This document shows positions 7,274 to 26,788 of a stretch of 26,848 nt of DNA, one piece after another. The DNA is taken from the NCBI GenBank assembly GCA_963932905.1, contig CAWVRN010000038.1, positions 1 through 26,848 of the forward strand, written 5' to 3'. This DNA is from an uncultured Bdellovibrio sp. GTDB taxonomy: Bacteria; Bdellovibrionota; Bdellovibrionia; Bdellovibrionales; Bdellovibrionaceae. The notes beneath the pieces are model-generated. The model had not been told where the DNA came from. It did not search any database and worked only from the letters and a program-made list of their open reading frames with translations. The first letter of the stretch is position 1. Every line of letters begins with the position of its first letter. The position numbers were made by a program, and so were the translations under genes.

Positions 7274-7459
7274 TTAAGTGGAACAGGTTGAAACACCAAA
7301 TATTTTGTACAGCGGACAAAATCCGACTATGCCTGTGAAAATTGGAATCAGCCCAAGAGCAGCCCAATTGCTTTTTGGACCCCAGAATAAAAGTGATATA
7401 ATTCCAATACCTAAAATCACTCTTAAAGTTCGATCTGTGTTACTTTCATTCATTTTCAT
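7274..7459 (-). CDS. YgaP-like / DUF2892 small membrane protein
   Basis: MN...DR.LR..LG..., TGIVGFCPLY.IFGVSTC signature; SD AAGGA. Confidence 0.9.
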   Translation of the reverse strand: MKMNESNTDRTLRVILGIGIISLLFWGPKSNWAALGLIPIFTGIVGFCPLYKIFGVSTCST

Positions 7460-7475
7460 ATTTTATCCTTTAAAT

Positions 7476-7865
7476 CTAATGAAGAGGATTTACTTGCAGT
7501 TTGTTTTCTACGGTTGAAACCCCGGGAGCACTCCAGGCCGCCCATTTTGCATTGTCCATGTCAGCAAACGATTTAACATCACCGCGTAGGGTAACTTTGT
7601 CTCCGGAGACTTCTACTTTTATATGGTTAGCTTCATTTTTGGCTTCGCGCTTTAGGGCGTCTTCAATTTTTTCAACCACCGCTTTGACACCGCCCACGCG
7701 CTGAGTGGCTTTTTCAGATGCCAGTTTCTCAATGAAACTAGGAACTCTACCAGACAAGGTTACGATTCCGTTCAGTATCGAAACACCAATGTGTCCATGA
7801 GAGATATTTGGATCCCAATTTAGTTGTTCCAAAACATCGGCTTGGATTTGTGAATCTGATTTCAT
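7476..7865 (-). CDS. BON domain protein (two BON domains; appears internally shortened)
   Basis: SDSQIQADVLEQLNWDP..GIVTLSGRV..RVGGVKAV and IKVEVSGDKVTLRGDV..AAWSAPGVSTVENKL; SD AAGGAG. Confidence 0.9.
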   Translation of the reverse strand: MKSDSQIQADVLEQLNWDPNISHGHIGVSILNGIVTLSGRVPSFIEKLASEKATQRVGGVKAVVEKIEDALKREAKNEANHIKVEVSGDKVTLRGDVKSFADMDNAKWAAWSAPGVSTVENKLQVNPLH

Positions 7866-7918
7866 TTTTAACTCCTTTTAAATGCGACCGATTAGGCACA
7901 GGTATACCAAAAACTGGT

Positions 7919-7933
7919 GCATCAACTGGACCC
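7919..7933 (-). promoter_or_regulatory. sigma54 promoter for the BON operon
   Basis: Minus GGGTCC-AGTTG-ATGC, correct spacing, 41 bp from the palindrome pair. Confidence 0.55.
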
Positions 7934-7969
7934 ACTTCAATTAAAGTAAAATTATACCTGAAATATAAA

Positions 7970-9589
7970 TCACGACATAATGTCCAATTTTTTGTCATTT
8001 TGTCTTTCGCTATTTTGTATCGCAAGCGCAAATTGATTTAGAATTTTTAAAAGGTTTTCTCGCGTCACTGGTTTGGTTAAATAAGCAGAGAACTCTTTAT
8101 CTGGAGTTTGATTTAAATCGGACGAAATTGCATTAGCCGTCAGCGCAATTATGGGTTTGGTAAAGCCCATACGTCGCAGGCGTCGAGTGGCCTCGTTGCC
8201 ATCTAATTTTGGCATTTGTATGTCCATAAGAATGATGTCATAAATTTCATTTGTTGCTTTCTGAACGCCGTCTTCGCCATCCCATGCGGTTTCTAGCTCG
8301 AAACCTGAATCTTTTAGGAAGTAGTTTATAATTTTTTGATTATCAAAAGAATCTTCAACTAAAAGAACCTTCAAGTTTCTATTTAGTTTATTACACCCGG
8401 GTTTCTGAGTTACTGGAGTTGGATTTTCGGGACTTGGGTAGTCCGTTAGTGCATAGGGCAGAGAGATTCTAAATGTGCTTCCTTTATCAACTTGGCTTTT
8501 TAATAGCACGACATCACCTTTAAGTTTTTGAGCCAGCTTTTTAGATAGATCCAATCCTAAACCAGTCCCCCCGTGCTTTCTAGATAGACTGACATCACCT
8601 TGTTCGAAGGGGTGAAATAGTTTTTCCTGATTTGAAAGAGTTATTCCAGGACCCGTGTCTTCAACGTCAATGATGAAAAAAGGAACATCATTAACGTTTT
8701 TTTTCAAACATAAGATTTTTATTGAACCTCGTTCCGTAAACTTAATGGCATTACCTAAAATATTGTTTACGATTTGTCGGACTCTAAGTGGATCAGATTT
8801 AAGAAACTGCGGAATTCCTGTGTCATACTCTAATGAAACTGAAACTGGCTTCGAAAGATACTTAGAACGTAGATCTTGGACTATCTCAGATAGCAATTTT
8901 CGCCAGTCGAAAAAGTCTTCCACAATTTGAATATGATCTGCTTCAATTTTAGATAAGTCTAAAATATCGTTAATCAGTTGAAGTGCACTTTCCCCATTTC
9001 TCTTAATAAATTTCAAAAAATCTTTTATTTCGGTTGGTTCATTGGATTCAAGTGCTAAATCAGTAAAGCCTAATATAGCGCTGAGTGGAGTGCGTATTTC
9101 ATGGCTCATATTAGCCAGAAACGCACTTTTAGCGCGACTAGAAGATTCCATTGCACGTTTTTCAGATTTTAGTTTTTGATTCTCTTCAATTTTCTCCTGA
9201 TCTATAGCACGCTTAATGCAATAACGAATAGAGCGTTCTAAAAGTTGAGGGGTAATTTGATCCTTGGATAAAAAATCAGAAGCGCCTTTGTTCATGGCGA
9301 TCACGTCGACATCGCGGTTTCCCTGACCTGTTAGCAAAATGATGCATTTTTTAACGTCATATTTTTTTATTTCATCTAAAATATCTAAGCCCGTTCTATA
9401 ATCAATGCGATAATCCACAAGATATACATCAGCCGACTGATTTTTTAAGGATTCAATTCCCGAGGTTGAATCACTGACCCAGCTTAAATTGTATTTTGTT
9501 CCTTTAACTTCATTCAAGAGCGATTGAATTAAAAAATAGTCATCTTGATCATCGTCAACTAAAACGACATTTATAGTATTATCGTTCAT
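7970..9589 (-). CDS. Hybrid histidine kinase (REC-HisKA-HATPase-REC)
   Basis: N-terminal REC (VVLVDDD..LVDY), H-box FLANMSHEIRTPL, NAIKFT, DTGPG, GTGLGL, C-terminal REC (LMDIQMP). Confidence 0.95.
   Translation of the reverse strand: MNDNTINVVLVDDDQDDYFLIQSLLNEVKGTKYNLSWVSDSTSGIESLKNQSADVYLVDYRIDYRTGLDILDEIKKYDVKKCIILLTGQGNRDVDVIAMNKGASDFLSKDQITPQLLERSIRYCIKRAIDQEKIEENQKLKSEKRAMESSSRAKSAFLANMSHEIRTPLSAILGFTDLALESNEPTEIKDFLKFIKRNGESALQLINDILDLSKIEADHIQIVEDFFDWRKLLSEIVQDLRSKYLSKPVSVSLEYDTGIPQFLKSDPLRVRQIVNNILGNAIKFTERGSIKILCLKKNVNDVPFFIIDVEDTGPGITLSNQEKLFHPFEQGDVSLSRKHGGTGLGLDLSKKLAQKLKGDVVLLKSQVDKGSTFRISLPYALTDYPSPENPTPVTQKPGCNKLNRNLKVLLVEDSFDNQKIINYFLKDSGFELETAWDGEDGVQKATNEIYDIILMDIQMPKLDGNEATRRLRRMGFTKPIIALTANAISSDLNQTPDKEFSAYLTKPVTRENLLKILNQFALAIQNSERQNDKKLDIMS
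7974..8004. promoter_or_regulatory. Paired activator sites (GACA-N3-TGTC type)
   Basis: GACATAATGTC 7974-7984 and GTCATTTTGTC 7994-8004, 20 bp apart, inside the 3' end of the hybrid kinase CDS. Confidence 0.65.
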
Positions 9590-9762: not shown

Positions 9763-10878
9763 TTAATTTAACAATGGCAGACGGATCACAAATTCTGATC
9801 CCTCGCCTAATTTACTAGTGGCAGAAATGTGTCCACCCCATGATTCCACAATTTTAAATGAAGTCGCCAAACCAAGGCCTGTGCCTTGGCCTATTTCTTT
9901 GGTAGTGAAAAATGGTTTGAATAAATTTCTTTGATTTTCATCAGAGATTCCACAACCTGTGTCCTTTACAGATAGTACGACTTCATCATTTTTTAATTCT
10001 GTTCTGATGATCACGTCGTGAGGCCGTGTCATTCCCTGTTTACGAGATTCATCAATAGCGTGAATAGCGTTGATGAGTATGTTTAGCAGTACTTGCCCGA
10101 GTGGGCCGGCTTCTGCCTTTACCATATTTGCGGCCGACAATTTTTTAATCAAATTGATATTGTTTCGCTCTAGTTCATGTTCGATCAAATTTAGAACGTC
10201 TTGAATAACTTGATTTATATCGACTGAGGCACCGGTCTCTGATTTCTGTTCACGCGCTAAATGCAGTAGGGAATTTACTAGTTTAGTAATACGATCAATT
10301 TGTGTTACAATTGTAGCTAGATCCTTTTTTAAAGCTTCATTACTTCCGGCTTTAGATTCAGCCAATTCAGCTCGACTTCGAATAATTCCCATCGGAGTAC
10401 CAATTTCGTGTGCTAGGCTAGATGCAAGAAGTCCCAGGGATGCCAATCTATCTTGTTGAATAATTTGCGCCTTACTTTCGCGCAATTCTTCCATGTCGTG
10501 CCGTTGCTTGATGGCATAGCGAATGGATCTTTCCAAAAGAGGACTTGTCAGTTGTCCTTTGACCAAATAATCGGATGCCCCGACGTGCATGGCTTTAATA
10601 TCTAGTTCAAAATCAATAAGGCCTGTCAGAAAAATGATGGGGCAGGAAAACATTTTGCCACGTGATTCACTTAATAATTCCAGACCGGTTTTCTCGCCCA
10701 GTCTATAATCTAATAGGCACGCATCGAACGTCTGTTCGTTCAGTGCAATTCGACCATCATTGTAATTTGATTTCCAGGTGACTTTGTATTTTGATGACAT
10801 CACATCATTTAATAAATCGCGGATATGCAAAAAATCGTCTTCGTCATCATCGATCAATAAGATGTGGAACTCTGTCAT
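9763..10878 (-). CDS. REC-histidine kinase (NtrB/AtoS-like transmitter)
   Basis: REC (ILLIDDD..LLDYRL), H-box LASLGLLASSLAHEIGTP, NAIHA, DTGCG, PFFTTK, GTGLGL. Confidence 0.95.
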   Translation of the reverse strand: MTEFHILLIDDDEDDFLHIRDLLNDVMSSKYKVTWKSNYNDGRIALNEQTFDACLLDYRLGEKTGLELLSESRGKMFSCPIIFLTGLIDFELDIKAMHVGASDYLVKGQLTSPLLERSIRYAIKQRHDMEELRESKAQIIQQDRLASLGLLASSLAHEIGTPMGIIRSRAELAESKAGSNEALKKDLATIVTQIDRITKLVNSLLHLAREQKSETGASVDINQVIQDVLNLIEHELERNNINLIKKLSAANMVKAEAGPLGQVLLNILINAIHAIDESRKQGMTRPHDVIIRTELKNDEVVLSVKDTGCGISDENQRNLFKPFFTTKEIGQGTGLGLATSFKIVESWGGHISATSKLGEGSEFVIRLPLLN

Positions 10879-11339
10879 TTTGTAACCTTTTTGGCACAGT
10901 TGGGAAGGGCTACTATTTCAAACCAGTACCGGCCAACATCACGCATGACTTGCACTAGCGATTCAAATTCAATGGGTTTGGTGATAAAAGAATTGGCGCC
11001 CAGGTTGTAGGATCGTACGATGTCTTCTTCAGCCTGTGACGTGGTCAATACAATCACTGGAATTTGATATAGATGAGGATGTTTTTTCAATTCAGTTAGT
11101 ACTTCGCGACCATCCATTTTTGGCATATTCAAATCTAGCAAGATCAAACCGGGCATTAGATTTTGACCGTCTTGTGACTGAGCCCATTTATCATGAAGAG
11201 TTTTTATTAGCGCTTCTCCATCATGAACAAACTGAAGTTCGTTCAACAATCGACTTTCCGTTAATGCTTCACGAATCATTTCGCAATCATCTAAATCGTC
11301 ATCGGCCACTAGGATTGGTATTGTATTATGGTCTCTCAT
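10875..11339 (-). CDS. Single-domain response regulator (Rcp1-like)
   Basis: ILVADDD, LILLDLNMPKMDGREVL, IPVIVLTTS, GANSFITKP; 4-nt overlaps with both neighbours. Confidence 0.95.
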   Translation of the reverse strand: MRDHNTIPILVADDDLDDCEMIREALTESRLLNELQFVHDGEALIKTLHDKWAQSQDGQNLMPGLILLDLNMPKMDGREVLTELKKHPHLYQIPVIVLTTSQAEEDIVRSYNLGANSFITKPIEFESLVQVMRDVGRYWFEIVALPNCAKKVTK

Positions 11340-12484
11340 ACCGGGATCTCCGTCGTTTGGGTTAGTGGAAGCAAAATAGAAAACGTGGCTCCTTGGTCAG
11401 GTTCTGATTTTGCCGTTATTATTCCACCATGACGGTCAACAATTTTACGGCAAACCGCTAGACCGATACCGGTTCCTTCGTATTCATGCCGTCCGTGAAG
11501 GCGTTGAAAAATTGTAAATATACGATCGACATATTTTTGATCAAATCCAATTCCGTTATCGGTTACGGTAATCAGGCACGCTTTCCCTGGTTTATTCAGC
11601 GTAGATGATTCTAAAATAGAGGCCGAGACCGTGACTTCGGGTTTGACATTTGGTTTATGAAATTTCAAAGCGTTGCTTATCAAATTTTGGAATAACTGAT
11701 GCATTTGAGTTGGATCGGCTTCGATGTTAGGTAAATCAGCTATTTGTACAGAACCGGAGGTTTGTTCTATGCGAACTTCTAGATCAGATTTAACTTGGTT
11801 TAAAATTTTATTTAAAGAAACGACTGAAAAAGGATTAGCTTTTGTCGTTACCCGTGAATAAGTGAGTAGGTCATTAATTAAAATCTGCATACGCTTAGCC
11901 GATGCCTGAACTCGTTCTAAATAGTCGAACGCTTCACTGGAAATAGTGTCCTTAGACTTAACCTTAACACGATCGGAAAATGTTTGTATTTTTCTAAGAG
12001 GCTCTTGTAGATCATGTGCCGCTATAGACGCGAAATCTTGTAATTCCTGATTGCTGATCTCAAGTTTTTTCGAATAGATTTTTAGGCGTTCTTCCGCCAA
12101 TTTACGTTCTGTGATTTCGTAACGGACGGATACATACTGTTCGGGTTTGCCTTCGTTATCCATAAATGGCACGATGGTCGTATTAACCCAATAGTAGGTG
12201 CCGTCTTTAGCTCGGTTCTTGATTTCGCCTTCCCAAGTTTTACCTTGGGAAATAGTTTTCCACATATCAATAAAAAATTCTTTAGGGTGATGATGGGAAT
12301 TGATAATTCTGTGCGTGTTTCCTAAAAGTTCTTCTTCTGAATATTTGGAAATAGCGCAGAACTTTTTATTAACGTACGAAATTTTTCCGCTTTTGTCGGT
12401 GATGGCAACGATGGCTGCTTCGTCAATTGCAGATTTTAAATGTAGGAAGTCTTCGCTGGATAGACCCTCAGTTGTTTTTTTCAT
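11336..12484 (-). CDS. Cytoplasmic PAS-domain sensor histidine kinase
   Basis: Likely start ATG 12484 (MKKTTEG); PAS with YVN..F, HHPKEFFIDMWKTISQGKTWEGEIKNRAKDGTYYWV; H-box AAHDLQEPLRKI; no TM segment. Confidence 0.93.
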   Translation of the reverse strand: MKKTTEGLSSEDFLHLKSAIDEAAIVAITDKSGKISYVNKKFCAISKYSEEELLGNTHRIINSHHHPKEFFIDMWKTISQGKTWEGEIKNRAKDGTYYWVNTTIVPFMDNEGKPEQYVSVRYEITERKLAEERLKIYSKKLEISNQELQDFASIAAHDLQEPLRKIQTFSDRVKVKSKDTISSEAFDYLERVQASAKRMQILINDLLTYSRVTTKANPFSVVSLNKILNQVKSDLEVRIEQTSGSVQIADLPNIEADPTQMHQLFQNLISNALKFHKPNVKPEVTVSASILESSTLNKPGKACLITVTDNGIGFDQKYVDRIFTIFQRLHGRHEYEGTGIGLAVCRKIVDRHGGIITAKSEPDQGATFSILLPLTQTTEIPV

Positions 12485-13871
12485 GTAATTCTTCCGGTGG
12501 TTCAGGGGTATCATCAGACACCATTCCATAAATACGTTCTTTTCTGTATAAAGTTCTGCGACTGATACCCAGAATTCGCGCCGCTTCGTCTTTTTTATTT
12601 TTGGCTTCACCCATGATCAGTTTGATATAACGTTCTTCCAGTTTTTCCAGAGTCGGCCGGTCAGAATGAAGTTGATCAATATTTTGCTGAGCTTCCTCTA
12701 GAGCACTACCAAGAATGACATTTTTTTCTATTAGTTTCCCAGTACTTAAAACAATTGCGCGTTCGATTACGTTTTCAAGCTCGCGAACATTTCCCGGCCA
12801 TGGGTGGGCCATCAAGACACTCATGGCTTCAGGTGTAGCGCCTTCAACGGTAGATCCATTTCTAATCGCAAATTTTTTGATAAAAGAGTCGACCAACATA
12901 GGAATATCTTCCAGCCGTTCACGCAGCGGTGGAACACGTATAGGTACGACATTTAATCGGTAAAATAAGTCTTCGCGGAACTTGCCGTCTTTCGCCATGA
13001 TTTTTAAATCCCGATGAGTCGCAGCGATAATGCGAACGTCAATGTCTTTATGAGTATTACTGCCAACGGCCCGTATTTGACGATCCTGTAGAACGCGCAG
13101 TAGTTTAGCTTGCAGTTGCAGACTCATGTCACCAATTTCATCTAGAAACAAAGTGCCGTGATTAGCTTCTTCAAACAGCCCTTTTTTATCGGATACGGCA
13201 CCTGTGAACGAGCCTTTCACATGACCAAATAATTCACTTTCTAATAAATGTTCCGGAATGGCCGTGCAGTTAATTGCAATAAACGGTTTATTTTTTCTGG
13301 GGCTGGCGTTGTGTAAAGCACGAGCCACCAATTCTTTTCCAGATCCACTTTCACCGGAAATCAAAACGCTTGCGGACGCAGGTGCCACAACTTTAACGAG
13401 TTCAAAAACAGAATTGATGGCAGGACTTTTTCCAACAATAGAATCAAGAGTAAAACTTTTAGTGAGTTCCTTTTTTAAACTCGCGTTTTCTTGTTTAAGA
13501 GAAACCCGCTCGCTGGCCCGTTTGACCAGAAGTTTCATTTCTTCGTTTTTGAATGGTTTTACAATATAATGATAGGCGCCCAGTTTCATGGCCTCGATTG
13601 CAGTTTCGATGGACCCAAACGCGGTCATCATAATTGAAACAATAGATGGATAATCGGTTTGAACCTTTTTAAGAAACATCAGGCCATCGATTTCTTTCAT
13701 TTTGTGATCGGTAATTAAAATGTGGGGAAGGTCGGTTTTGAATTTAAATAAGGCTTCCGCTGCCGACGTATACTGTGTGGTAATGTATCCTTCAGCTGAA
13801 AGAAGTTCCGCTACGACTCCGCCCATTTCTTTGTCGTCGTCAACAATTGCTACTTTTATCTTGTTTGCCAT
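12468..13871 (-). CDS. sigma54-dependent enhancer-binding response regulator (NtrC/AtoC family, REC-AAA+-Fis HTH)
   Basis: REC, Walker A GESGSGKE, ESELFGH..GSFTGA, LFLDEIG, WPGNVRELEN, HTH AARILGISRRTLYRK. Confidence 0.97.
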   Translation of the reverse strand: MANKIKVAIVDDDKEMGGVVAELLSAEGYITTQYTSAAEALFKFKTDLPHILITDHKMKEIDGLMFLKKVQTDYPSIVSIMMTAFGSIETAIEAMKLGAYHYIVKPFKNEEMKLLVKRASERVSLKQENASLKKELTKSFTLDSIVGKSPAINSVFELVKVVAPASASVLISGESGSGKELVARALHNASPRKNKPFIAINCTAIPEHLLESELFGHVKGSFTGAVSDKKGLFEEANHGTLFLDEIGDMSLQLQAKLLRVLQDRQIRAVGSNTHKDIDVRIIAATHRDLKIMAKDGKFREDLFYRLNVVPIRVPPLRERLEDIPMLVDSFIKKFAIRNGSTVEGATPEAMSVLMAHPWPGNVRELENVIERAIVLSTGKLIEKNVILGSALEEAQQNIDQLHSDRPTLEKLEERYIKLIMGEAKNKKDEAARILGISRRTLYRKERIYGMVSDDTPEPPEELHEKNN

Positions 13872-13908
13872 ATCTTTCCTAATACGTTTGTTTGCTTATG
13901 TTAGCCCA

Positions 13909-13923
13909 TCAACCTAAATGCCA
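13909..13923 (-). promoter_or_regulatory. sigma54-like promoter (TTGA variant) for the regulator operon
   Basis: Minus TGGCAT-TTAGG-TTGA, 38 nt upstream of ATG 13871. Confidence 0.5.
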
Positions 13924-14029
13924 AAAAGCCTGACCAACGACATTTTGGGAACCCAAGTATAAATGCTTAATTTTATAAGCAAAAATAGATCGCGTGTTTA
14001 GGATAGGTGTAATCTGAAATGCACCTAGT

Positions 14030-14071
14030 GACAACTTGTCTGCTATTTTAAGCGAACGATGACAAGTTGTC
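14030..14071. promoter_or_regulatory. Paired perfect activator palindromes
   Basis: GACAACTTGTC 14030-14040 and GACAAGTTGTC 14061-14071, 31 bp apart, between divergent genes. Confidence 0.75.
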
Positions 14072-14113
14072 ACAAAACTATCCGTAATAGAGCTTTATAT
14101 TCTTTTTCGCCGT

Positions 14114-14128
14114 TGGCGAGGCTCTTGC
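14114..14128 (+). promoter_or_regulatory. sigma54 promoter
   Basis: TGGCGA-GGCTC-TTGC. Confidence 0.7.
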
Positions 14129-14179
14129 GAAGATATCTTAACAAAGTACCCAAGTTCGTGGGTCAATACGGAGAATAAT

Positions 14180-14587
14180 TTGAAACCCTCACCGCACATT
14201 CAAAAGTATATGACTTTTCTGCCTAAAACTATCAACCACGATCAAACCATCGGTCATGCCATAAGTTTAATGAAAAAACTCCATATTCGGCATCTTCCCG
14301 TAATGAAAAATAATAAACTCATGGGCATCTTAACAGATCGAGATATCAGTTTAGTATTGCGGTTCATAGCGTCTAACCCAGACAAAATTCGCGTGGAAGA
14401 TGCCTGTTCGCCGCATCCCTATACTACCAGCCCAGGTACTCCGTTAGCAGACGTCGTGAGTTATATGGCTGAACATACCATTGGATCGGCCATCATCGTT
14501 GATAATGGAACCCTCGTGGGAATTTTCACCGAAGTCGATGCATTTCGTGCCATCGCTGACTTACTGGAAACCAGACTTAAAGCATAA
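14180..14587 (+). CDS. CBS-pair (Bateman) protein
   Basis: IRHLPV..GILTDRDI and GSAIIVDNGTLVGIFTEVD; TTG start after GGAG. Confidence 0.92.
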   Translation: MKPSPHIQKYMTFLPKTINHDQTIGHAISLMKKLHIRHLPVMKNNKLMGILTDRDISLVLRFIASNPDKIRVEDACSPHPYTTSPGTPLADVVSYMAEHTIGSAIIVDNGTLVGIFTEVDAFRAIADLLETRLKA

Positions 14588-14604
14588 ACAAAATGGGAGG
14601 TAGC

Positions 14605-15030
14605 ATGAAACTTGTAGATCGAATTAGTCACGTGTTGATGGATAGTTTAATTGTAACGTCTATTGCCTTTATCGCTGTTTCTTCAATGGCCTTTTCAGGG
14701 AAGCAATCAGAGTCTATACCATTTCAAGAGTTTCAAGATGATATGCGCAAGGAAGGTCAGTTCCTAACGGTACATTTGTCGTTGGGAAATCCAATCCGAG
14801 TCTTTATTGTTGGTAAGGAAGAAGCAAAAATCGACGTATCTAAATTAGATATCACCATAAGACGCTTAAACCCCTATCCTGGGAAACTTCTAAAGTTAGA
14901 TAGGTACGATAATTACGTTGTAGTAAATGATCTTGGTGAAATGCAGAAGGACGCGGAACTTGAAATCAAATTAAAATCTAACGACAAGACTGAAAATTTT
15001 AAATTTAAGTTAAAACAAAAAGTCCCTTAA
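14605..15030 (+). CDS. Hypothetical exported or membrane-anchored protein
   Basis: ATG 14605 after GGAGG; N-terminal hydrophobic stretch, beta-rich remainder; lies within the operon. Confidence 0.7.
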   Translation: MKLVDRISHVLMDSLIVTSIAFIAVSSMAFSGKQSESIPFQEFQDDMRKEGQFLTVHLSLGNPIRVFIVGKEEAKIDVSKLDITIRRLNPYPGKLLKLDRYDNYVVVNDLGEMQKDAELEIKLKSNDKTENFKFKLKQKVP

Positions 15031-15040
15031 GGAGTACGCT

Positions 15041-16912: not shown

Positions 16913-16941
16913 ATACTTTCCTTTGTGCATAGATCAAATAA

Positions 16942-16956
16942 GCACTATTTGTGCCA
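16942..16956 (-). promoter_or_regulatory. sigma54 promoter
   Basis: Minus TGGCAC-AAATA-GTGC. Confidence 0.75.
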
Positions 16957-17083: not shown

Positions 17084-17108
17084 TGTTAGGAGAAACATAC
17101 AAAAGGAT

Positions 17109-17630: not shown

Positions 17631-17650
17631 AAATTATGAAAGGAAAAAGT

Positions 17651-18049: not shown

Positions 18050-18053
18050 AGCG

Positions 18054-18452: not shown

Positions 18453-18677
18453 CTGTATAGACTTAAACGCCGTGGGTACTTCTACACGGTAGTTTCGATT
18501 AAATCGGACAATTTGTAGTAATGGCACCTATTGAATAGAGTTGCGAGGTCGATCTCGTTGACATTCTTTCCAAGAGTGCGGTTCAAATGGCTGAGACGCA
18601 TATGACCAAGCGGCGCACAAGAGGATTTGTTTTGGAAGCAAAAATTGAGGCCTCAATATTGAAAAGTTTAATCATTG

Positions 18678-19512: not shown

Positions 19513-20802
19513 TTAATTCTTTCTGCAGTCTTCAAAAAAAGCACGTTCTAAATTTTCCCGATCATCTGGATGGGCCAGTTCTGTAAGAGCTCGTGCTCGT
19601 TGATGAATTGACTTTCCGAACAGATTGACGGCGCCATATTCTGTTACGATATAGTGTACATGGGCACGTGTTGTAACGACCCCTGCGCCAGATTTTAAAC
19701 TAGAAACTATTCTTGATGTTCCATGTTTTGTTCTAGAACTTAATGCAATGATGGGTTTTCCTCCATTAGAAAGTGCGGAACCACGAATAAAGTCAATTTG
19801 TCCTCCGACTCCTGAAATCACTTTGTGTCCAATAGAATCAGCGCAGACCTGACCGGTTAGATCTACTTCTACGGCTGAATTAATTGAGACCACTTTGTCA
19901 TTCTTTGCAATAACGGTAGGGTTGTTCACATAGTTGGCTTCTAGTAGAATTATAGAAGGATTATTATCAACAAAATCAAATACGTTTTTGCTGCCCATTA
20001 CAAATGTAGAAACAGTTTTGCCTTGGTGAATCTTCTTTTTAGAATTGTTAACGACTCCACTTTTTAATAGCTTTAAAGCGCCATCTGACCACATTTCTGT
20101 GTGAATACCTAGGTCCACATGTCCGCTAAGGCATGATAGAACGGCGTCAGGAATAGTTCCGATTCCCATTTGCAAAGTAGATCCATTTTCAATAAGTTCC
20201 GCTGTGTTTTTGCCAATTTCAAGTTCAATGGATGATAATGCCTTGGGGTGCGATTCAAGCAAAGGTTCACTGTGTTCTACTAAAAAATCGATTTCATTAA
20301 TTGAAACCAGTGCATCTCCGAATGTTCTTGGCATTTGTGTATTCACCTGGGCAATTACAATTTTCGAATTAGCAATGGCTGATTTCACTACATCCACGCT
20401 GGTACCCAAAGAACAAAAACCATGTTTATCGGGTGGGGAGACTTGAATTAACGAAACGTCCAATGGAATGATTTTATTCTTGAATAGCGTTGGCATTTCA
20501 GAAAGAAAGCAGGGGATATAGTCAATGCGATCAAAATCTATATAGGGGCGAACATTAGATCCCACAAAAAGATTCATGACTTTAAAGTTAGCACTATATT
20601 GCGGTTTTAAATAATCCGCATCACCGTGAGTGTGCAGATGAACTAACATAACATTTGTCAGACGGTCTGCTTGGCTTACTAATTCTTTTATTAAGAAATT
20701 GGGGGTGGCGCAACCCCCGTGAATGAAAACATTCTGAAATGAATTGATATGGTTGATAGCGGATGAAGCAGAACATTGTTTGGGTTCTTTATAAGTACCC
20801 AT
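19513..20802 (-). CDS. Acetyl-CoA hydrolase/transferase family (4-hydroxybutyrate CoA-transferase-like)
   Basis: VSPPDKHGFCSLG, TLQMGIG, DLGIHTEM, EVDLTGQV, SGVGGQIDF, VTEYG. Confidence 0.93.
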   Translation of the reverse strand: MGTYKEPKQCSASSAINHINSFQNVFIHGGCATPNFLIKELVSQADRLTNVMLVHLHTHGDADYLKPQYSANFKVMNLFVGSNVRPYIDFDRIDYIPCFLSEMPTLFKNKIIPLDVSLIQVSPPDKHGFCSLGTSVDVVKSAIANSKIVIAQVNTQMPRTFGDALVSINEIDFLVEHSEPLLESHPKALSSIELEIGKNTAELIENGSTLQMGIGTIPDAVLSCLSGHVDLGIHTEMWSDGALKLLKSGVVNNSKKKIHQGKTVSTFVMGSKNVFDFVDNNPSIILLEANYVNNPTVIAKNDKVVSINSAVEVDLTGQVCADSIGHKVISGVGGQIDFIRGSALSNGGKPIIALSSRTKHGTSRIVSSLKSGAGVVTTRAHVHYIVTEYGAVNLFGKSIHQRARALTELAHPDDRENLERAFFEDCRKN

Positions 20803-21576
20803 TTATTGTGCTACCCATCCGCCATCAACCACAAGGGGATGGCCCGTGACGAACGATGATTGCTCAGAACACAACCATAGTACGGAAGACGCAACTTCTT
20901 CGGGCTGGCCAAGGCGGCCGATGGGTTCGCCATTTACAAATTGATTTCGTATTTGCGCTTCGCCATGGGTAAATCGGTCAATCATGGGGGTTGATATGAC
21001 GCCCGGACAAACTGCATTAATACGAATATTAGATTTGGCATATTCCAAAGCGGCGGTTTTGGTTAGTCCAATCACTGCGTGCTTGCTAGCTACATAGGCC
21101 GGGATTCCGGGAAAGCCAATTAGGCCAGCTATTGACGAGCAATTGACAATCGCTCCGCCACCTTGTTTTAGCATTCGAGGAATCTGATACTTCATACATA
21201 GCCATACGCTTTTCAAATTCACATCCATAACATGATTCCAATTATCTTCGCTGGTATCTGCCGTAAATGACTGAGTCCCTTCAATGCCTGCGTTATTAAA
21301 TGCATAATCAAGGGCCCCAAATTTATCGACGGTTTGTTGGATTGAATTTTTCACCTCTTCACGTTTAGACACATCGGCGTTAATAAAAAGGCCTGTTCCA
21401 CCTGCTTCGGTCATTATATGCAACGTTTTTAAGCCATCGTCGACATTAATATCAACCAGTGCCACGCGTGCCCCATAGCTAGCAAATGCCAGAGCTGTGG
21501 CGCGACCGATACCGGTAGCAGCACCTGATACGAATGCGACTTTGTTCTTAAAATTATAAGCAATTTGTGTGTTCAT
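20803..21576 (-). CDS. Classical SDR oxidoreductase
   Basis: [21 protein letters not shown]. Confidence 0.95.
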
Positions 21577-21584
21577 TTTGTCCC

Positions 21585-21914
21585 CTATCTAAAAGACGGA
21601 AGTGTTTGAAGATTTAAATGTTGATTACCAAACTTTGGTAGCAGCAGGTAAAGAACACCATTTAGATAAATAGTTTTAATTCCTTTTCCACGAGGCACCG
21701 CCCGAAAAATAACTTCCTTGGTTCCAGAATTATCTTTTTGGCTTTCTATCAACAATTGCTTTTTTGTTGTCACGATTTGAGTTGCGATGGCTGGTATAGA
21801 AGGAATATCTACTGCCACCAAATAATGAGTATCAATTTCAGCTAATGAAAACAGTGCTGGATTTTTTTTTGATAAGTTTTTGAAATTGAATGTGGCTAAT
21901 CCTTTTTTACCCAT
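21585..21914 (-). CDS. Degenerate Hsp20/alpha-crystallin-like protein
   Basis: [13 protein letters not shown] and [16 protein letters not shown] match the sHSP beta3 and beta8-9 motifs; ATG 21914 after AGGAGG. Confidence 0.65.
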
Positions 21915-21949
21915 TTTTCCTCCTAGTATTTTGATAAAAATTTTAAATT

Positions 21950-21964
21950 GCAATGTATAAGCCA
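21950..21964 (-). promoter_or_regulatory. sigma54 promoter
   Basis: Minus TGGCTT-ATACA-TTGC(A). Confidence 0.75.
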
Positions 21965-22048: not shown

Positions 22049-22090
22049 TCAGTAATTGGATCTAAGCCTAGAATTTGAGGTACTTGCATA

Positions 22091-22105
22091 TGGCCTCTTG
22101 GATGC
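22091..22105 (+). promoter_or_regulatory. sigma54 promoter
   Basis: TGGCCT-CTTGG-ATGC. Confidence 0.65.
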
Positions 22106-22130
22106 TAGTTGTTACACGCAAGGGGGTATT

Positions 22131-22319
22131 GTGACACTTGATCAAGAAAAGAAAAACAAATTTAAGAACGGTTTTATAAAACGTTTACCACTTGCGATTT
22201 TAGGGATGATTCTTTTAACCGCTGGCTTAATCTTCGATAGATGGTGGTGGCAGGCAGGATTTGGATTCCTATTTGTTATAGCCATCGAGGCCTTGTTTTT
22301 ATATGTAGTTTTAGATTGA
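22131..22319 (+). CDS. Small two-TM membrane protein (62 aa)
   Basis: GTG 22131 after AGGGGG; basic N-terminus and two hydrophobic helices; has its own sigma54 motif. Confidence 0.65.
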   Translation: MTLDQEKKNKFKNGFIKRLPLAILGMILLTAGLIFDRWWWQAGFGFLFVIAIEALFLYVVLD

Positions 22320-22360: not shown

Positions 22361-23401
22361 CTAAGAAATCTGTGAGGGCAGTACTAAATCCGAATCAGAG
22401 CTAAATCGTAATTTAGCTTGTTTTCTTCTTGCCGATTCTTTTTTGATATTTTTAGATAACTGCGGTTTGTGCATCACAAGTACAGGGCAAGGCGCATGTA
22501 GCAAGACGTCTCGCACTGTGCTTCCTAATATAGAGCCGGCAACTAATCCGCGTTCGCTGGTCATCGCAATTAGATTGGCATTTGTTGATTTGGCAGCGGA
22601 AATGATATCAAAACTTAAAAGTTTTCGTTGCCGTTGAATTAGAGGTACTGCTTTTACACCTAATTCAGATAAATATTCGACCCATTTAGCACCTCGGTTA
22701 TGTCGTTGATCCTCTGTCGTTTTTTCAAGAGACGGTAAATCAAGGGTCGGTGCGTATCCAAAATACAAAGGTGAATATAACGACATATCCGTCCTTTCAA
22801 CCTGATTGAAAATTTGAACTTTGGCGTGATAATTTTTTATTAATGACGCCAAGATCGTCAGGGCCTTTCTTGAATCACTACTGAAGTTAGTCGGGAAAAG
22901 AATAGTATTCAATCGTGCTTTAGTTTTCACTTTGTCATTGATAAGCAGAACGGGAATTCGGGAAACAGCAATCAGTGTTTCGGCAAAGCCTCCCAGTCTT
23001 AGCGGATTCCATGATTGTTTAGCATGAGTATTTGCAAAAATCATCAACGCGTTCGATTGTTTTGAAAAAGTCGACAGATCCAATGCCATTTGACGATTTG
23101 ACGCTTTTTCTGAAAAAACAATTTTTGGTTTTAAAAATCCTTTGGCCTTGGCTTTTTTCAAATAATTCTCTGCTGCGGAGTAGGCCGCTTTGGGAAAATC
23201 TCCATTAATCGACGATGCGATCTCTAAAGGATATTTTAAAAGTGAAGTGGACACGATCGCAACTGGTTGTACATCGCAATCGAGATGCTTTGCCCAAGAT
23301 TTTAGTTCGGCAATAATGTGTTTTGCTAATTTGGGATTCTGGAATGGGTCAACGGCCCAATGAATTTGGGCTCGTTTTTCAATTTTTGAAGTTGGATTCA
23401 T
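22361..23401 (-). CDS. Tandem-domain universal stress protein
   Basis: LGGFAETLIAVSRIPVLLI, ILFPTNFS, NLIAMTS..ILGSTVRDVLLHAPCPVLVM. Confidence 0.92.
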   Translation of the reverse strand: MNPTSKIEKRAQIHWAVDPFQNPKLAKHIIAELKSWAKHLDCDVQPVAIVSTSLLKYPLEIASSINGDFPKAAYSAAENYLKKAKAKGFLKPKIVFSEKASNRQMALDLSTFSKQSNALMIFANTHAKQSWNPLRLGGFAETLIAVSRIPVLLINDKVKTKARLNTILFPTNFSSDSRKALTILASLIKNYHAKVQIFNQVERTDMSLYSPLYFGYAPTLDLPSLEKTTEDQRHNRGAKWVEYLSELGVKAVPLIQRQRKLLSFDIISAAKSTNANLIAMTSERGLVAGSILGSTVRDVLLHAPCPVLVMHKPQLSKNIKKESARRKQAKLRFSSDSDLVLPSQIS

Positions 23402-23428: not shown

Positions 23429-23905
23429 TTATTGAACTTTGACTTCTTTTGCTTTGGTGGCTTCTGTTTTTGGCGCCACGATCGTCAATACACCGGCCTC
23501 ATAGTGAGCTTGGACTTGATTTTCATTAATGGCCTGAGGTAATGAAAACGATCTCATAAACGATCCATAGTACGTTTCATTGAGTGTATGCTTTGCGTCC
23601 GATTCATCGCGTTTATCTTTGCGTTCACCGCTGATAGTAATTTGATTTGCCTCGACTTCAATTTTAATGTCTTCTTTTTTGATCCCTGGGACGTCGATTT
23701 GAAAACTGTATTCTTTTTTGTTTTCCTTAATGCTGCAAGCGGGAACGAAAGCCGCATCTAAGTTTTCGGGCATTAAAGCAAGATCAAATGGATTTTGACG
23801 AAACCAACGGTCCATACCGCTTTCGAAATCATTAAATGATTTTAGCGGACTAAAAAAGCGATTACGTTGGCTTGGCAATGTCATTTTTGAAACTAAATTT
23901 TTCAT
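23429..23905 (-). CDS. Hsp20/alpha-crystallin small heat shock protein
   Basis: DVPGIKKEDIKI, ISGERK, YGSFMRSFSLP, AHYEAGVLTIVAPK, C-terminal VKV; start ATG 23905 after AAGGAG. Confidence 0.95.
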   Translation of the reverse strand: MKNLVSKMTLPSQRNRFFSPLKSFNDFESGMDRWFRQNPFDLALMPENLDAAFVPACSIKENKKEYSFQIDVPGIKKEDIKIEVEANQITISGERKDKRDESDAKHTLNETYYGSFMRSFSLPQAINENQVQAHYEAGVLTIVAPKTEATKAKEVKVQ

Positions 23906-23959
23906 ACATACTCCTTTGTGTGAACGTGTTCGTTCTGGTTGGTTGTATGGAAAAAGAAA

Positions 23960-23974
23960 GCAATAGTAAGGCCA
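23960..23974 (-). promoter_or_regulatory. sigma54 promoter for the Hsp20-USP operon
   Basis: Minus TGGCCT-TACTA-TTGC(T). Confidence 0.75.
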
Positions 23975-24016
23975 GGTTTCTATCTGCGATAGAATTAACA
24001 AGAAGAAAATTGACAA

Positions 24017-24048
24017 GACAACTCGACTCAGGACATTGACAATCTGTC
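24017..24048. promoter_or_regulatory. Paired activator sites
   Basis: GACAACTCGAC 24017-24027 and GACAATCTGTC 24038-24048, 21 bp apart. Confidence 0.7.
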
Positions 24049-24448
24049 ATGATTTTTCTGATTTTAGCCTATTAAGATCGACTTCCACTTTTTTAACTTC
24101 GATTTCTAAAGCAGAAATTTCGGGAGCAATCAAAGCGGTGACTAGAAAAGCCATATAGGACCAGACAAATAAAGTTCCAAATAGCATCATCGAAATTACG
24201 GTAAGTTTGCCTCCGATGGTTTGGGGCGCATAAGTATTATATCCGATTGAAGTTGTTAAGCTTGTGCTCCATAGTAAACAGTCTAGGTAGTCTAATTTAT
24301 TTGGAATTATTGGGGACTCGAAATGATATATCAAAAGGCTGCCTAATAATATGACTAAATTTCCAAGAAAGGTGAGTATCCAAAATAGTGGAGTTTTAAA
24401 AAGCGCCTTTATTCGAATTTTGTAGTTGTAATGTCTAAATCGATTCAT
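24047..24448 (-). CDS. 2-TM potassium-channel-family pore protein with a non-canonical filter
   Basis: TM1 - YLDCLLWSTSLTTSIGYNTYAPQTIGGK - TM2 - short coiled coil (KcsA-like layout). Confidence 0.8.
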   Translation of the reverse strand: MNRFRHYNYKIRIKALFKTPLFWILTFLGNLVILLGSLLIYHFESPIIPNKLDYLDCLLWSTSLTTSIGYNTYAPQTIGGKLTVISMMLFGTLFVWSYMAFLVTALIAPEISALEIEVKKVEVDLNRLKSEKS

Positions 24449-24474
24449 TGATTTTTAGCCAGCAAATAAGATGC

Positions 24475-25413
24475 CTATTCTATTTTTTGAATTTTAACTT
24501 TTTGATACATTTTAGATATTTCATTTCTGCTTCCTAAGTTCATACCGGGTTCAAATAAGGTGGCTGCGGCGGCGGCAAGTCCTCGTTTTAATACTTGCGA
24601 TTCGTCCACATAGTTTTTATTTAGCTCGTAAACCATAGCTCCTACCAAGGAATCGCCGGCACCAACCGTCGATTTTATTTTTATGTTAGGAACCTTGCCA
24701 AAATAGATATTTTTTTGTCCAACTAAAAGTGTGCCTCCTTCCACAGAGGAAACGCAGATATATTGAACGTCATTTAAATATCTTTTAGCTTTTTCAATTA
24801 CAGAACCTATCGATTTAACGTGTGAACCAGTGAATTCTTGAAACTCTTCTAAATTAGGTTTGATAAGAAAAGGTTTTGCCTGAATCACGGCTCTTAATAT
24901 TTCCCCGGGACAATCTACAACTGCTTTTATATTTTTTCTATGAGAAATTTTTAAAAGGTATACAATGTCTTTAGATGTAAAACCATTTGGAAGAGAACCT
25001 CCCAGTAACAAAAATGATATATTTTTTTGAGCCTCGTACAAACGAAACAATTTACTTTTTTCAGAGGCAGAAACTTTAGGCCCAGGGAAACTTAGACGGG
25101 TCTGGTTGTGATTTAACTCGTTGCCGACTGTGACATTGATCCGTGAAGGGCGTTTGATTTGAATAAATTCAGTATTAAGATTTTCTTTTTTCATCAAAAA
25201 ATTAATCTCGTCGCCTGTGCTGCCGCCCAGAAATCCAGACAGGACCACGGTCGCCTTAAGACGACTTAAAATTCTTGCTGAATTAATTGAGTTTCCTCCT
25301 GGTGATCTAACAGCGTTGTATACATAAGATTTTTCATTCGGTTTCAGGTCTTTGACAAATCCACTAAGATCCAGTGCTGGGTTGGGAGTGATGGTAAATA
25401 TTTTTTTCTTCAT
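24475..25413 (-). CDS. pfkB: 1-phosphofructokinase/PfkB family hexose kinase
   Basis: TITPNPALD, PGGNSIN.AR, GGSLP, LIKPNLEE, STVGAGDS. Confidence 0.92.
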   Translation of the reverse strand: MKKKIFTITPNPALDLSGFVKDLKPNEKSYVYNAVRSPGGNSINSARILSRLKATVVLSGFLGGSTGDEINFLMKKENLNTEFIQIKRPSRINVTVGNELNHNQTRLSFPGPKVSASEKSKLFRLYEAQKNISFLLLGGSLPNGFTSKDIVYLLKISHRKNIKAVVDCPGEILRAVIQAKPFLIKPNLEEFQEFTGSHVKSIGSVIEKAKRYLNDVQYICVSSVEGGTLLVGQKNIYFGKVPNIKIKSTVGAGDSLVGAMVYELNKNYVDESQVLKRGLAAAAATLFEPGMNLGSRNEISKMYQKVKIQKIE

Positions 25414-25481
25414 AAATTTCTCTACTTTTTACATTCAGAGTAATCCTTTTTCTTAATAGATCAATATGAGAAAATCATTGA

Positions 25482-25522
25482 GTCGAATTGTCTCGTAAAA
25501 TTGAATTTTTTGACAACTTGTC
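25482..25522. promoter_or_regulatory. Paired activator sites
   Basis: GTCGAATTGTC 25482-25492 and GACAACTTGTC 25512-25522, 30 bp apart. Confidence 0.7.
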
Positions 25523-25585
25523 TTTTTTTCTTGGTTAGTTTTCTCGTTTTGATACCTTGGGTGCTTTCATATTTGTTTTTACATT

Positions 25586-25600
25586 TGGCATACGGCCTGC
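25586..25600 (+). promoter_or_regulatory. sigma54 promoter
   Basis: TGGCAT-ACGGC-CTGC(T). Confidence 0.7.
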
Positions 25601-25624
25601 TTTTTATTTTGGATGGAGGGTCCA

Positions 25625-26788
25625 ATGAAATTCTTGGTCGTTTTCGCATCAAAGCATGGACAAACACGGACTATCGGTGAGTTTGTTAAAAGAACAATCT
25701 TATCTAAAAAGGAAAACTCGGTAGAATTTTTAGACCTGGGTTTGCGTGAAGATATACCCGAATGCGAAAGTAACGCGAATGTAGTCATTATTGGAACCCC
25801 TATTTATGCGGGCCGATTTCACGATTCAGTAGTTAATTGGACAAGAAAAAATAAAAATAGAATTTCTTCGAAACGCCTAGCGTTTTTCACCGTTAGTTTA
25901 AATGCCGAAGATAAACATCCCGAGGCTAGGGTAGTTGATGATCGCAAGCTAAAAGATCTTATTAGAAAGACAGGTTTAGTTCCAAATTTTGTGGCCAGTT
26001 TTTCAGGGGCATTGAATTATTTAGAATATGATTTAGTAACCCGTTGGCTTTTAAAACGTATCAGCAAGAAAGCTGGGGGCCCAATCGACACAAGTCGTGA
26101 TTATGATTTTACGAATTGGGATCACGTAGCTGCTTTTGTCAAAGCAATTGAAGATAACGAGTTGAATTCTTGTTACTCTGTAAGTAGACGTCTACCAAGC
26201 GAAAATAATTTAAACAACGTGATGCCTGTGTTTGAGCAGGTTTGGTCGCGGACATTGAATGTTAAACGATCGCCGGCTGAAGTATTTTTTTCGTTTATGT
26301 CACTAAAATCTAGTGAGCTTAGAATGGGTGACGTATTGGCAAAAATAAGAAACTTGGGCCGAGAAGAAAATTCGACCGAGGATGAATTGTTCGTCACATC
26401 AACAGAAAAGTTTGGTGGAGTTGAACTGTATCGCAACGAACCTTACGAGGTAATTTCTGGCTTAGTTGGACAGTTTTGGAGAATAGATTTTGGTATTAAA
26501 CATTTGGCCGCAGCCGAATTCAAAGAATTCGATGAACTTCATTATGCCAAGGTTGTTACACAATTGGTTTTTAGACCAGTGAATGAAGGCAGAGAATGCG
26601 AAGTCTATTGTGAAATGCGTGTCCATTCGACCACAGAAGCGGCCGCGCAACGATTCAAAGTTTACTGGAACTTATTTAGACCGGGAATCAATCTCTATAT
26701 GCGAAGTCTTCTAAGGGCGATTAAACGTCGTGCAGAGCATGACTCTGATCATTTTTCGTTGTCGAATAAGGAAGTTAAGATTTTCTAA
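25625..26788 (+). CDS. hemG: HemG-like flavodoxin-fold protoporphyrinogen IX dehydrogenase fused to a ~200-aa C-terminal domain
   Basis: FASKHGQT, IGTPIYAGRF, AFFTVSL, FSGALNY..Y, GGPIDTSRDYDFTNWDHVAAF; extra domain with GLVGQFWR and F..YW..FRPG..LRAIKRRAE; ATG 25625 after GGAGG. Confidence 0.8.
   Translation: MKFLVVFASKHGQTRTIGEFVKRTILSKKENSVEFLDLGLREDIPECESNANVVIIGTPIYAGRFHDSVVNWTRKNKNRISSKRLAFFTVSLNAEDKHPEARVVDDRKLKDLIRKTGLVPNFVASFSGALNYLEYDLVTRWLLKRISKKAGGPIDTSRDYDFTNWDHVAAFVKAIEDNELNSCYSVSRRLPSENNLNNVMPVFEQVWSRTLNVKRSPAEVFFSFMSLKSSELRMGDVLAKIRNLGREENSTEDELFVTSTEKFGGVELYRNEPYEVISGLVGQFWRIDFGIKHLAAAEFKEFDELHYAKVVTQLVFRPVNEGRECEVYCEMRVHSTTEAAAQRFKVYWNLFRPGINLYMRSLLRAIKRRAEHDSDHFSLSNKEVKIF

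Follow-up and report, generated by a model that had tools for sequence, protein, structure and literature searches.

A predicted sigma-54 regulon with dormancy-type cargo, possibly for low oxygen or reduced redox state, in an uncultured Bdellovibrio sp.

Introduction

Which regulator, and which signal, would control a cluster of dormancy-type genes in a predatory bacterium? In Mycobacterium tuberculosis, the DosR (DevR) regulon comprises genes for Hsp20, tandem universal stress proteins (USPs), a CBS-pair protein, PfkB, and an aeRF1-fold factor. Members of the same families are encoded together in an island (positions 7274 to 26788) of an uncultured Bdellovibrio sp. (assembly GCA_963932905.1, contig CAWVRN010000038.1), around a gene for an NtrC-type sigma-54 activator (12468-13871) and its putative phosphorelay. 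An earlier note on this DNA had proposed a low-oxygen or energy-stress dormancy module run by its own enhancer-binding protein. Here, we examined how the island might be wired and what it might sense. With moderate confidence, we favor the reading that the island forms a sigma-54 regulon complete in itself, which would respond to low oxygen or a reduced redox state.

The window, i.e., the whole stretch of 26,848 nucleotides that was analyzed, is one entire contig (C38) of a 4.55-Mb genome in 58 contigs. The host genome is 98.6% complete, and the contig represents 0.59% of it. Since the window is an entire contig, the island possibly extends beyond position 26848. Its left edge is marked by a strong terminator at 7223-7247.

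Results

A four-gene relay operon headed by an NtrC-type activator

Gene identities were obtained from Pfam and NCBIfam scans of the open reading frames (ORFs) of the window (E values are given in brackets here and below). The signaling genes are as follows.

12468-13871, minus strand: NtrC-type sigma-54 activator with REC, AAA+, and Fis-type helix-turn-helix domains, first gene of the relay operon
11336-12484, minus strand (ORF to 12610, probable start 12484): soluble sensor kinase with a flavin adenine dinucleotide (FAD)-type PAS, HisKA, and HATPase (Pfam PAS_9, HisKA, and HATPase_c)
10875-11339, minus strand: stand-alone receiver of 154 residues with one REC (Response_reg, 7.5e-23)
9763-10878, minus strand: REC-HisKA-HATPase hybrid kinase of NmpS/LvrB architecture (Pfam Response_reg 6-109, HisKA 148-211, HATPase_c 259-369)
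7970-9589, minus strand: REC-HisKA-HATPase-REC hybrid kinase (Pfam)

The activator matched Sigma54_activat (1.8e-73), Response_reg (1.3e-22), and HTH_8 (4.3e-09), and its translation contains a Walker A motif (GESGSGKE), the GSFTGA loop, and an acceptor Asp in ILITDHK. Every score against NCBIfam equivalogs remained under the cut-off, the best being AtoC (472 bits versus 714). The REC-kinase at 9763-10878 gave a full-length alignment with LvrB (8vc9_A, E = 8.6e-34), possesses the acceptor Asp and the H-box, and scored 196 bits against AtoS (cut-off, 646); it is likely the kinase of the activator. For the stand-alone receiver, the nearest solved chains were single-domain receivers of the Rcp1/RcpA type, and a role as phosphate sink is possible. 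The N-terminal REC of the kinase at 7970-9589 resembles that of 9763-10878 when compared by eye, and a relative of this kinase adjoins the relay only in loci L023, L044, and L050. The host genome contains rpoN and 23 full activator-type matches. Thus, the PAS-kinase/sigma-54-activator cascade named in the earlier note was recovered by Pfam matches, together with two REC-kinases and one stand-alone REC.

Predicted sigma-54 promoters precede several operons of the island

Boxes matching at least 9 of the 11 consensus positions of the -24/-12 element precede seven transcription units. The predicted boxes of the island are listed below.

13908-13923, minus strand: activator operon, TGGCAT-N5-TTGAT
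14114-14129, plus strand: CBS1 operon, TGGCGA-N5-TTGCG (8/11)
16941-16956, minus strand: CBS2, TGGCAC-N5-GTGCT (10/11)
17069-18452 (operon with box), plus strand: CBS3/aeRF1-like/CBS operon, TGGTCC-N5-TTGCT
21949-21964, minus strand: operon of Hsp20-like protein, short-chain dehydrogenase/reductase (SDR), and CoA-transferase, TGGCTT-N5-TTGCA
23959-23974, minus strand: Hsp20-USP, TGGCCT-N5-TTGCT
24461-24476, minus strand: K+ channel, AGGCAT-N5-TTGCT
25586-25601, plus strand: HemG-like gene, TGGCAT-N5-CTGCT

A box of at least 9/11 was present near 6 of 22 ORF starts in the island, versus 186 of 3930 ORF starts elsewhere in the genome. The seventh box (CBS3) was missed here, since the longest ORF of CBS3 begins upstream of the probable start. 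When the plain consensus was searched throughout the window, 8 of 16 matches were located just upstream of probable gene starts in the correct orientation.

Moreover, a palindrome, wGACAAnTTGTCw, adjoins five of the units, often in two copies about 31 bp apart.

14029-14072: palindrome pair, copies at 14029 and 14060, 31 bp apart, between the divergent activator and CBS1 promoters
17017-17029: palindrome between the divergent CBS2/CBS3 promoters, 15.7 bits
24037-24049: palindrome upstream of the Hsp20-USP box
25481 (weak) and 25511: palindromes upstream of the HemG-like box

Across the 4.55-Mb genome, TGACAAnTTGTCA occurs once as a perfect match and 15 times with one mismatch, and 4 of these 16 sites fall within the 26.8-kb contig. 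The copy at 14060 is the sole perfect match, and the copy at 14029 has one mismatch. To avoid circularity, we built a scoring matrix from 14 sites that all came from relatives. With this matrix, the two copies of the pair scored 18.8 and 17.8 bits, and 5 of the 24 best matches in the genome lay in the contig. A correctly oriented sigma-54-like box was found within at most 260 nt of all six contig entries, versus 9 of 33 entries elsewhere (39 matches of at least 14 bits). The operon with the Hsp20-like, SDR, and CoA-transferase genes and the K+ channel gene have box-only promoters; upstream of the former, only weak palindrome-like sites are present. Together, these in silico results suggested that the palindrome pair at 14029-14072 serves as an enhancer common to the divergent activator and CBS1 promoters, which the activator would bind. 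The copy at 17017 would be shared in the same manner by the divergent CBS2 and CBS3 promoters.

Similar elements were also encountered on other contigs of the same genome. On C15 (28465-29008), an OsmC-family gene carries an 18.0-bit palindrome and a box (CGGCCT-N5-TTGCT) 40 nt before its start; this gene, located outside the island, might belong to the regulon as well. Palindrome and box likewise precede an AAA_28 gene (C34) and a secreted protein gene (C2). The AAA_28 gene, with a box that fits the consensus perfectly (TGGCACCACCGTTGCT) and a palindrome match of 17.2 bits, is divergent from a receiver-less activator of 321 amino acids with 45% identity to the window activator (L016 15616-18609); a gene for a Host_attach/baeRF_family12 protein adjoins, and an AAA_28 gene is also divergent from the activator ortholog in L008. 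On C42 (L019 3790-3835), a 44-bp inverted repeat (TTGCCAATTTGTCC...GGACAAATTGGCAA) with a high matrix score, which includes a palindrome pair, lies between divergent genes. No sigma-54 box was found near this repeat, which is probably the site of another factor.

Relay, palindromes, and boxes are conserved in related loci

Of 40 sampled relatives, 10 have an ortholog of the activator (at least 59% identity), among them 5 of the 9 genomes from the same genus. When the phylum was sampled evenly, 12 of 301 genomes, own genome included, contained an ortholog; these genomes were confined to few families, and none of the 18 genomes of one well-sampled genus contained one. For the comparison of gene neighborhoods, we considered 19 ortholog loci (L002-L011, L023, and L047-L054; L020 and L021 repeat L005 and L004 and were counted once). 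The order of the four relay genes is kept in 15 of these, and a CBS gene is divergent to the activator in 11, with two loci cut by a contig end.

Six activator-CBS1 spacers could be aligned. Mean identity was 59%, and the invariant columns coincided with the palindrome pair, the box of each promoter, and the ribosome site: for the activator box, the plus-strand columns TCAA and TGC are invariant in all six loci, and for the CBS1 box, TTGGC and TTG. The same type of activator box was also found upstream of the activator in L047, L048, L049, L050, and L053. In eight further, independent loci outside the matrix, a palindrome of at least 13 bits is located beside the activator in seven, with pairs 30-31 bp apart in four.

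Conservation was also seen at other promoters of the island. In the CBS2/CBS3 spacer, the palindrome is kept as TGACAnAATGTCw in L002, L004, and L005, and both boxes are conserved in the same loci. The palindrome-and-box arrangement of the window Hsp20 gene recurs at the Hsp20 gene of L052, with AGACAGACTGTCT and TGGCCC-N5-TTGCT, and the K+ channel box is conserved in L021. While pfkB has no recognizable box of its own in the window, palindromes and TGGACC-N5-TTGCA accompany it in L020 and L021. The gene order CBS1-u145-beta-CASP (u145 being a 145-residue protein) is maintained in L002, L004, and L007; in L047 and L050 it is kept with a K+ channel gene inserted before the beta-CASP gene.

Two further neighbors were recorded in related loci. 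In the same-genus loci L002 (9377-10372) and L004 (9359-10354), a D-2-hydroxyacid dehydrogenase gene, absent from the window, directly follows the beta-CASP gene. TGase_elicitor-family proteins are encoded within a few kilobases of the activator or of a 53% homologue in three different genomes, namely in L008 (6057-7658), L010 (779-2287), and L012 (9517-11022).

The sensor PAS and promoters of relatives point to redox or oxygen as the likely input

The PAS domain of the sensor kinase aligned best with MmoS PAS-A of Methylococcus capsulatus (3ewk_A residues 1-115, E = 3.5e-53), and further with Aer (8dik_A, 1.6e-23) and NifL (2gj3_A, 6.9e-15). Both 3EWK PAS-A and 2GJ3 are tabulated as FAD binders (PMC8694187). 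The aligned PAS stretch lacks the LOV-type cysteine motif. Because of the matches to MmoS PAS-A, Aer, and NifL, redox or oxygen is the likely signal.

The regulatory sites of relatives fit the same input. In L050, palindrome and box precede a P-type ATPase gene, which is followed by CcoNO, FixP, and FixG, and they also precede a gene for a 192-residue Flavodoxin_5 protein. In L048, they are found before an HMA P-type ATPase gene, and in L049 before a cbb3-type cytochrome c gene. As P-type ATPase and cbb3 genes are preceded by palindrome and box in these relatives, the activator appears to be tied to micro-oxic respiration. Plausibly, then, the input is redox or oxygen. Overall, two proposals of the earlier note, namely sigma-54 control of the cargo by an activator of the island itself and an input concerning low oxygen or redox state, are supported in silico, the former by conserved -24/-12 boxes and an island-enriched palindrome and the latter as plausible.

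Counterevidence and alternative explanations

Several observations weigh against a redox-responsive sigma-54 regulon. Searched over the entire window, the plain consensus gave no enrichment of boxes (16 matches versus 11.9 expected; 18 of 100 shuffles reached 16), and it is therefore their position, orientation, and conservation that carry the case. A number of boxes deviate from the consensus: the activator -12 element reads TTGA, and the CBS1 box matches at only 8 of 11 positions. No convincing box was found for pfkB, a kinase-like gene at 18675-19325, an 87-residue membrane ORF, the BON gene, or the kinase at 7970-9589, the best sigma-54-like matches being 8/11 for this kinase and 7/11 for BON. 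In 5 of the 19 ortholog loci, no CBS gene is located beside the activator. Furthermore, the cbb3 operon of the host genome itself (contig C7) has no upstream palindrome of at least 9 bits, and the relay direction proposed below is borrowed from Myxococcus.

Alternatively, the sigma-54 regulon might be real and the relay might read energy or nutrient state, or the stage of the predatory cycle, with the cargo serving general stress survival. CBS and USP proteins are generally nucleotide-binding energy sensors, the second and third kinases of the locus have no assigned input, the PAS cofactor was assigned by similarity, and the palindrome is missing from the host's own cbb3 operon. However, MmoS, Aer, and NifL are all redox sensors, the LOV-type cysteine motif is absent, and it is P-type ATPase or cbb3 genes that palindrome and box precede in relatives. 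We regard this explanation as unlikely, albeit one to be taken seriously.

It would be more surprising if boxes and palindromes formed no functional sigma-54 circuit at all; the palindrome would then be a repeat or be bound by a different factor, and the clustered genes would not be co-regulated by this activator. The unenriched scan, the weakness of several boxes, and the similar palindrome pair on C42 without a nearby box agree with this possibility. In contrast, the oriented co-occurrence of palindrome and box in all six contig entries, the presence of the palindrome beside the activator in seven of eight independent loci, and the retention of palindrome and boxes across several families while the flanks drift all argue for a working circuit. 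Sigma-70-like promoters were not enriched in the window either (45 versus 50.6 expected). Hence, we consider a nonfunctional arrangement improbable.

Similarly doubtful is control of the cargo by a CRP/FNR- or DosR-type regulator encoded elsewhere, which would leave the local activator with only its own operon. The cargo families overlap those of such regulons, and some genes lack a sigma-54 box. Boxes of the FNR/FixK2 type have the motif TTGAT-N4-ATCAA; FNR/CRP-type boxes were not enriched in the window (35 versus 31.2 expected), and none was found at promoter position, whereas sigma-54 boxes precede seven transcription units.

Finally, an AtoSC-like system for short-chain acyl-CoA or ketone-body metabolism, with the stress genes as bystanders, is hardly credible: AtoC and AtoS are indeed the best NCBIfam names for the activator and the REC-kinase, and the CoA-transferase and SDR genes share one operon with a sigma-54-like box, but both scores are far under their cut-offs, the CoA-transferase has matches in relatives only in L004, L005, L006, and L023, no SDR match was found beside any activator ortholog, and the conserved core next to the activator consists of CBS, u145, and beta-CASP.

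The island resembles the NmpRSTU system of Myxococcus xanthus

The earlier note knew of no description of such an arrangement, yet NmpRSTU of M. xanthus represents a close published parallel (PMC6211767, 2018; PMC11841059, 2025). According to PMC11841059, NmpU, a soluble kinase with a globin, works in the presence of oxygen and phosphorylates the receiver of NmpS, which keeps NmpS off. At low oxygen, NmpS (REC-HisKA-CA) phosphorylates the NtrC-type NmpR; sigma-54 promoters are then activated by NmpR bound to GCGCA-N5-TGCGC sites in tandem. The NmpR targets given there are a CBS gene heading its own operon, a USP gene, a P-type ATPase with cbb3 oxidase, HemN with hemerythrin, and nmpUTS; NmpRSTU is induced by hypoxia, and the authors themselves draw a parallel to USPs and the regulon of mycobacterial dormancy (PMC11841059). 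Lvr is named as sharing the NmpS architecture (PMC6211767). In the parts considered here, neither paper mentions Bdellovibrio (PMC11841059, PMC6211767). Among the matches listed for literature joining Bdellovibrio with sigma-54 or low oxygen, Bdellovibrio received at most one passing mention per paper, and no description of an island-type system in Bdellovibrionota was present; literature on USP, CBS, sigma-54, and Hsp20 together with hypoxia yielded two unrelated papers.

By component list, NmpRSTU and the window share a soluble sensor kinase, a REC-HisKA-CA kinase, a REC-only protein, and an NtrC-type activator. Further common features are two tandem palindromic sites at sigma-54 promoters and positive autoregulation (in silico for the window). 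The predicted targets overlap in part: the first one, next to the activator, encodes a CBS protein, a USP gene is among them, and a P-type ATPase with cbb3 oxidase would be included in relatives of the window, although not in its own genome. An O2-independent enzyme of the heme pathway is represented by HemN in M. xanthus and may be represented by the HemG-like protein in the window, and both hosts are usually regarded as aerobic predators. In contrast, the sensor is a protoglobin in M. xanthus and a FAD-type PAS in the window; the protoglobin domain PF11563 had no match in the 98.6%-complete host genome. NmpT contains two receivers, whereas the REC-only protein of the window has one, and unlike in M. 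xanthus, all four relay genes of the window form one operon. The DNA sites also differ: GCGCA-N5-TGCGC with a gap of 14-15 bp, versus wGACAAnTTGTCw in pairs about 31 bp apart from center to center. Moreover, the window cargo is larger and more dormancy-like than that of Nmp, with two Hsp20-type proteins, an aeRF1-like protein, a beta-CASP nuclease, PfkB, and a K+ channel.

On these grounds, the window can be read as a variant of the NmpRSTU-type design, with a flavin PAS in place of the globin, another DNA site, and a larger, DosR-like cargo. The different sensor cofactor and DNA site suggest that the relay is a portable module with a swappable input domain. If so, the recently described Nmp-type design, that is, an inverted two-kinase relay with a sigma-54 activator responding to low oxygen, would extend to a second predatory lineage.

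The likeness to DosR lies in the cargo, in which families overlap (Hsp20, tandem USP, CBS pair, PfkB, and aeRF1 fold). The regulation differs: DosR is of the NarL/LuxR type with heme-GAF kinases and sigma-70, while the window has an NtrC-type activator, sigma-54, and a FAD-type PAS. The island would thus link sigma-54 to genes usually under DosR- or FNR-type control, namely those for Hsp20, USP, CBS, PfkB, and an aeRF1-fold protein.

MmoS, whose PAS-A aligns to the window PAS, has also been linked to a sigma-54-dependent operon. It is, however, a much larger multidomain kinase with two PAS domains solved, whereas the window protein has one PAS fused directly to HisKA-CA, and the targets are unrelated. 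LvrA/LvrB of Leptospira resemble the relay in that the REC-kinase aligns full length to LvrB, with 156 bits for NF047466; this score is far below the cut-off of 500, and none of the present results implies a sigma-54 activator for Lvr. LvrB and LvrA are the best named relatives of the REC-kinase and the PAS kinase, respectively.

A model for a proposed redox-responsive sigma-54 regulon

For the favored regulon for low oxygen or reduced redox state, the sequence itself shows the domains, the boxes, and the palindrome, together with the enrichment and conservation of these elements. By contrast, we infer that the activator binds DNA, that a flavin is present, in which direction the relay runs, and what the physiological outcome would be. 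In the model, the soluble kinase would read the redox state with its FAD-type PAS. Under oxidized conditions, by analogy to NmpU and NmpS, it would phosphorylate the receivers of 9763-10878, of the stand-alone REC, and perhaps of 7970-9589, and thereby keep the REC-kinase off. Once the flavin is reduced, the sensor would fall silent, and the REC-kinase would autophosphorylate and pass the phosphate to the activator. The activator would then assemble on tandem wGACAAnTTGTCw sites and open sigma-54 promoters, driving its own operon, the three CBS operons (with the beta-CASP nuclease and the aeRF1-like protein), the two Hsp20-type genes, and the tandem USP gene, as well as the K+ channel gene, the CoA-transferase/SDR pair, and the gene for the HemG-like flavoprotein.

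More speculatively, and in our view doubtful in its full extent, a subset of Bdellovibrio-like predators might use this flavin relay as a sigma-54 switch into a nongrowing, protected state upon loss of oxygen. Translation and RNA metabolism would be among its targets, via a one-domain relative of the ribosome-hibernation factor Balon, the beta-CASP nuclease, and four CBS energy sensors, and the switch would constitute an independently built counterpart of mycobacterial dormancy. If true, this might account for the persistence of predators that are obligate aerobes in groundwater or biofilm without oxygen. The island offers candidates for the survival of aerobic predators under anoxia, and a compact set of roughly eight predicted promoters with a clear enhancer motif.

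Cargo genes of the island

Outside the relay, we assigned the following genes.

7476-7865, minus strand: BON protein (BON, 5.9e-30)
14180-14587, plus strand: CBS1, a CBS pair (9.9e-24)
between CBS1 and the beta-CASP gene, plus strand: u145, a membrane-anchored protein of 145 residues without family, in operon 14180-16417
15041-16417, plus strand: beta-CASP nuclease (7.6e-37)
16448-16912, minus strand (ORF 16448-16930): CBS2, a CBS pair (1.2e-24)
17109 (probable start; ORF 16878-17630), plus strand: CBS3, a CBS pair (1.8e-26)
17636-18049, plus strand: aeRF1/Pelota-like single-domain protein of 137 residues (weak pelota match of 24 bits, cut-off 178)
18054-18452, plus strand: CBS pair, third gene of the CBS3 operon (4.7e-26)
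19513-20802, minus strand: CoA-transferase (3.2e-63)
20803-21576, minus strand: SDR (6.9e-72)
21585-21914, minus strand: divergent Hsp20-like protein (no Pfam match)
22361-23401, minus strand: tandem USP with two USP stretches (1.4e-18)
23429-24016, minus strand (start 23908): Hsp20 (2.9e-26)
24047-24448, minus strand: K+ channel, not named in the earlier note
24475-25413, minus strand: PfkB-family kinase (TIGR03168, 261 bits, cut-off 216)
25613-26788, plus strand: HemG-like flavodoxin fusion (Flavodoxin_5, 1.2e-21)

Family matches thus agreed with the earlier assignments of the four CBS-pair proteins, tandem USP, PfkB, BON, beta-CASP, CoA-transferase, and SDR, while the proposed YgaP-like protein (22056-22319) had no family match in the Pfam or NCBIfam scans. 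Two Hsp20-like proteins had been claimed: the one at 23429-24016 was identified by Pfam, and for that at 21585-21914 the evidence is indirect, with a BLASTP hit to the Hsp20 of the window (E = 0.003) and Hsp20 clusters as 19 of 30 Atlas matches. The similarity of the 145-residue protein to Hsp20 was not significant. Whether the BON gene belongs to the regulon is uncertain.

The HemG-like assignment received indirect support from the Flavodoxin_5 domain. Against the HemG model NF008316, the protein scored 91.6-93.8 bits, under the cut-off of 142, and it has an extra C-terminal part of 211 residues without family. As HemJ was not found in the host genome, which contains one HemY-like gene, this protein might provide an O2-independent alternative.

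For the 137-residue protein, the designation as aeRF1-like received indirect support from its fold; the pelota score itself is far below the cut-off. It has no Pfam family; its relatives form a small family, so far without a name, of about 70 proteins. As its single-sequence fold was poor (pLDDT 57), we used a model built with an alignment of 29 relatives (pLDDT 76). The model matched the middle domain of eRF1/aRF1/Pelota (TMq 0.62-0.65) and Balon, including Rv2629 (TMq 0.60), which is titled "hibernation factor Balon" in the PDB. In the 137 residues, it displayed only a fold resembling the middle domain of the three-domain aeRF1 fold. Balon chains comprise roughly 360-375 residues, whereas the window protein has 137 and a single domain. 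No similarity was detected between this protein and the baeRF_family12 protein of contig C34. Members of its family are also encoded in four Leptospira genomes (L040-L043), with 30-32% identity.

Elements at the left edge of the island

Rfam and tRNA scans of the window gave no match. At 6540-6794 (minus strand), we observed a GC-rich, strongly folding stretch of 231 nt (z = -5.56; 0 of 200 shuffles were equally stable), which has a canonical terminator at its end and a sigma-54-like box (AGGCGC-N5-TTGCA, 6794-6779) in front of it, and belongs to no Rfam family. A partial match was found in 1 of 40 relatives (78% over 132 nt). This stretch may represent a small RNA at the left island edge. An ORF at 6880-7213 encodes 101 residues without family and is followed by the terminator at 7223-7247. 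It starts 13 nt after a box, TGGCAT-N5-TTGAA, of the same flavor as that of the activator's own promoter.

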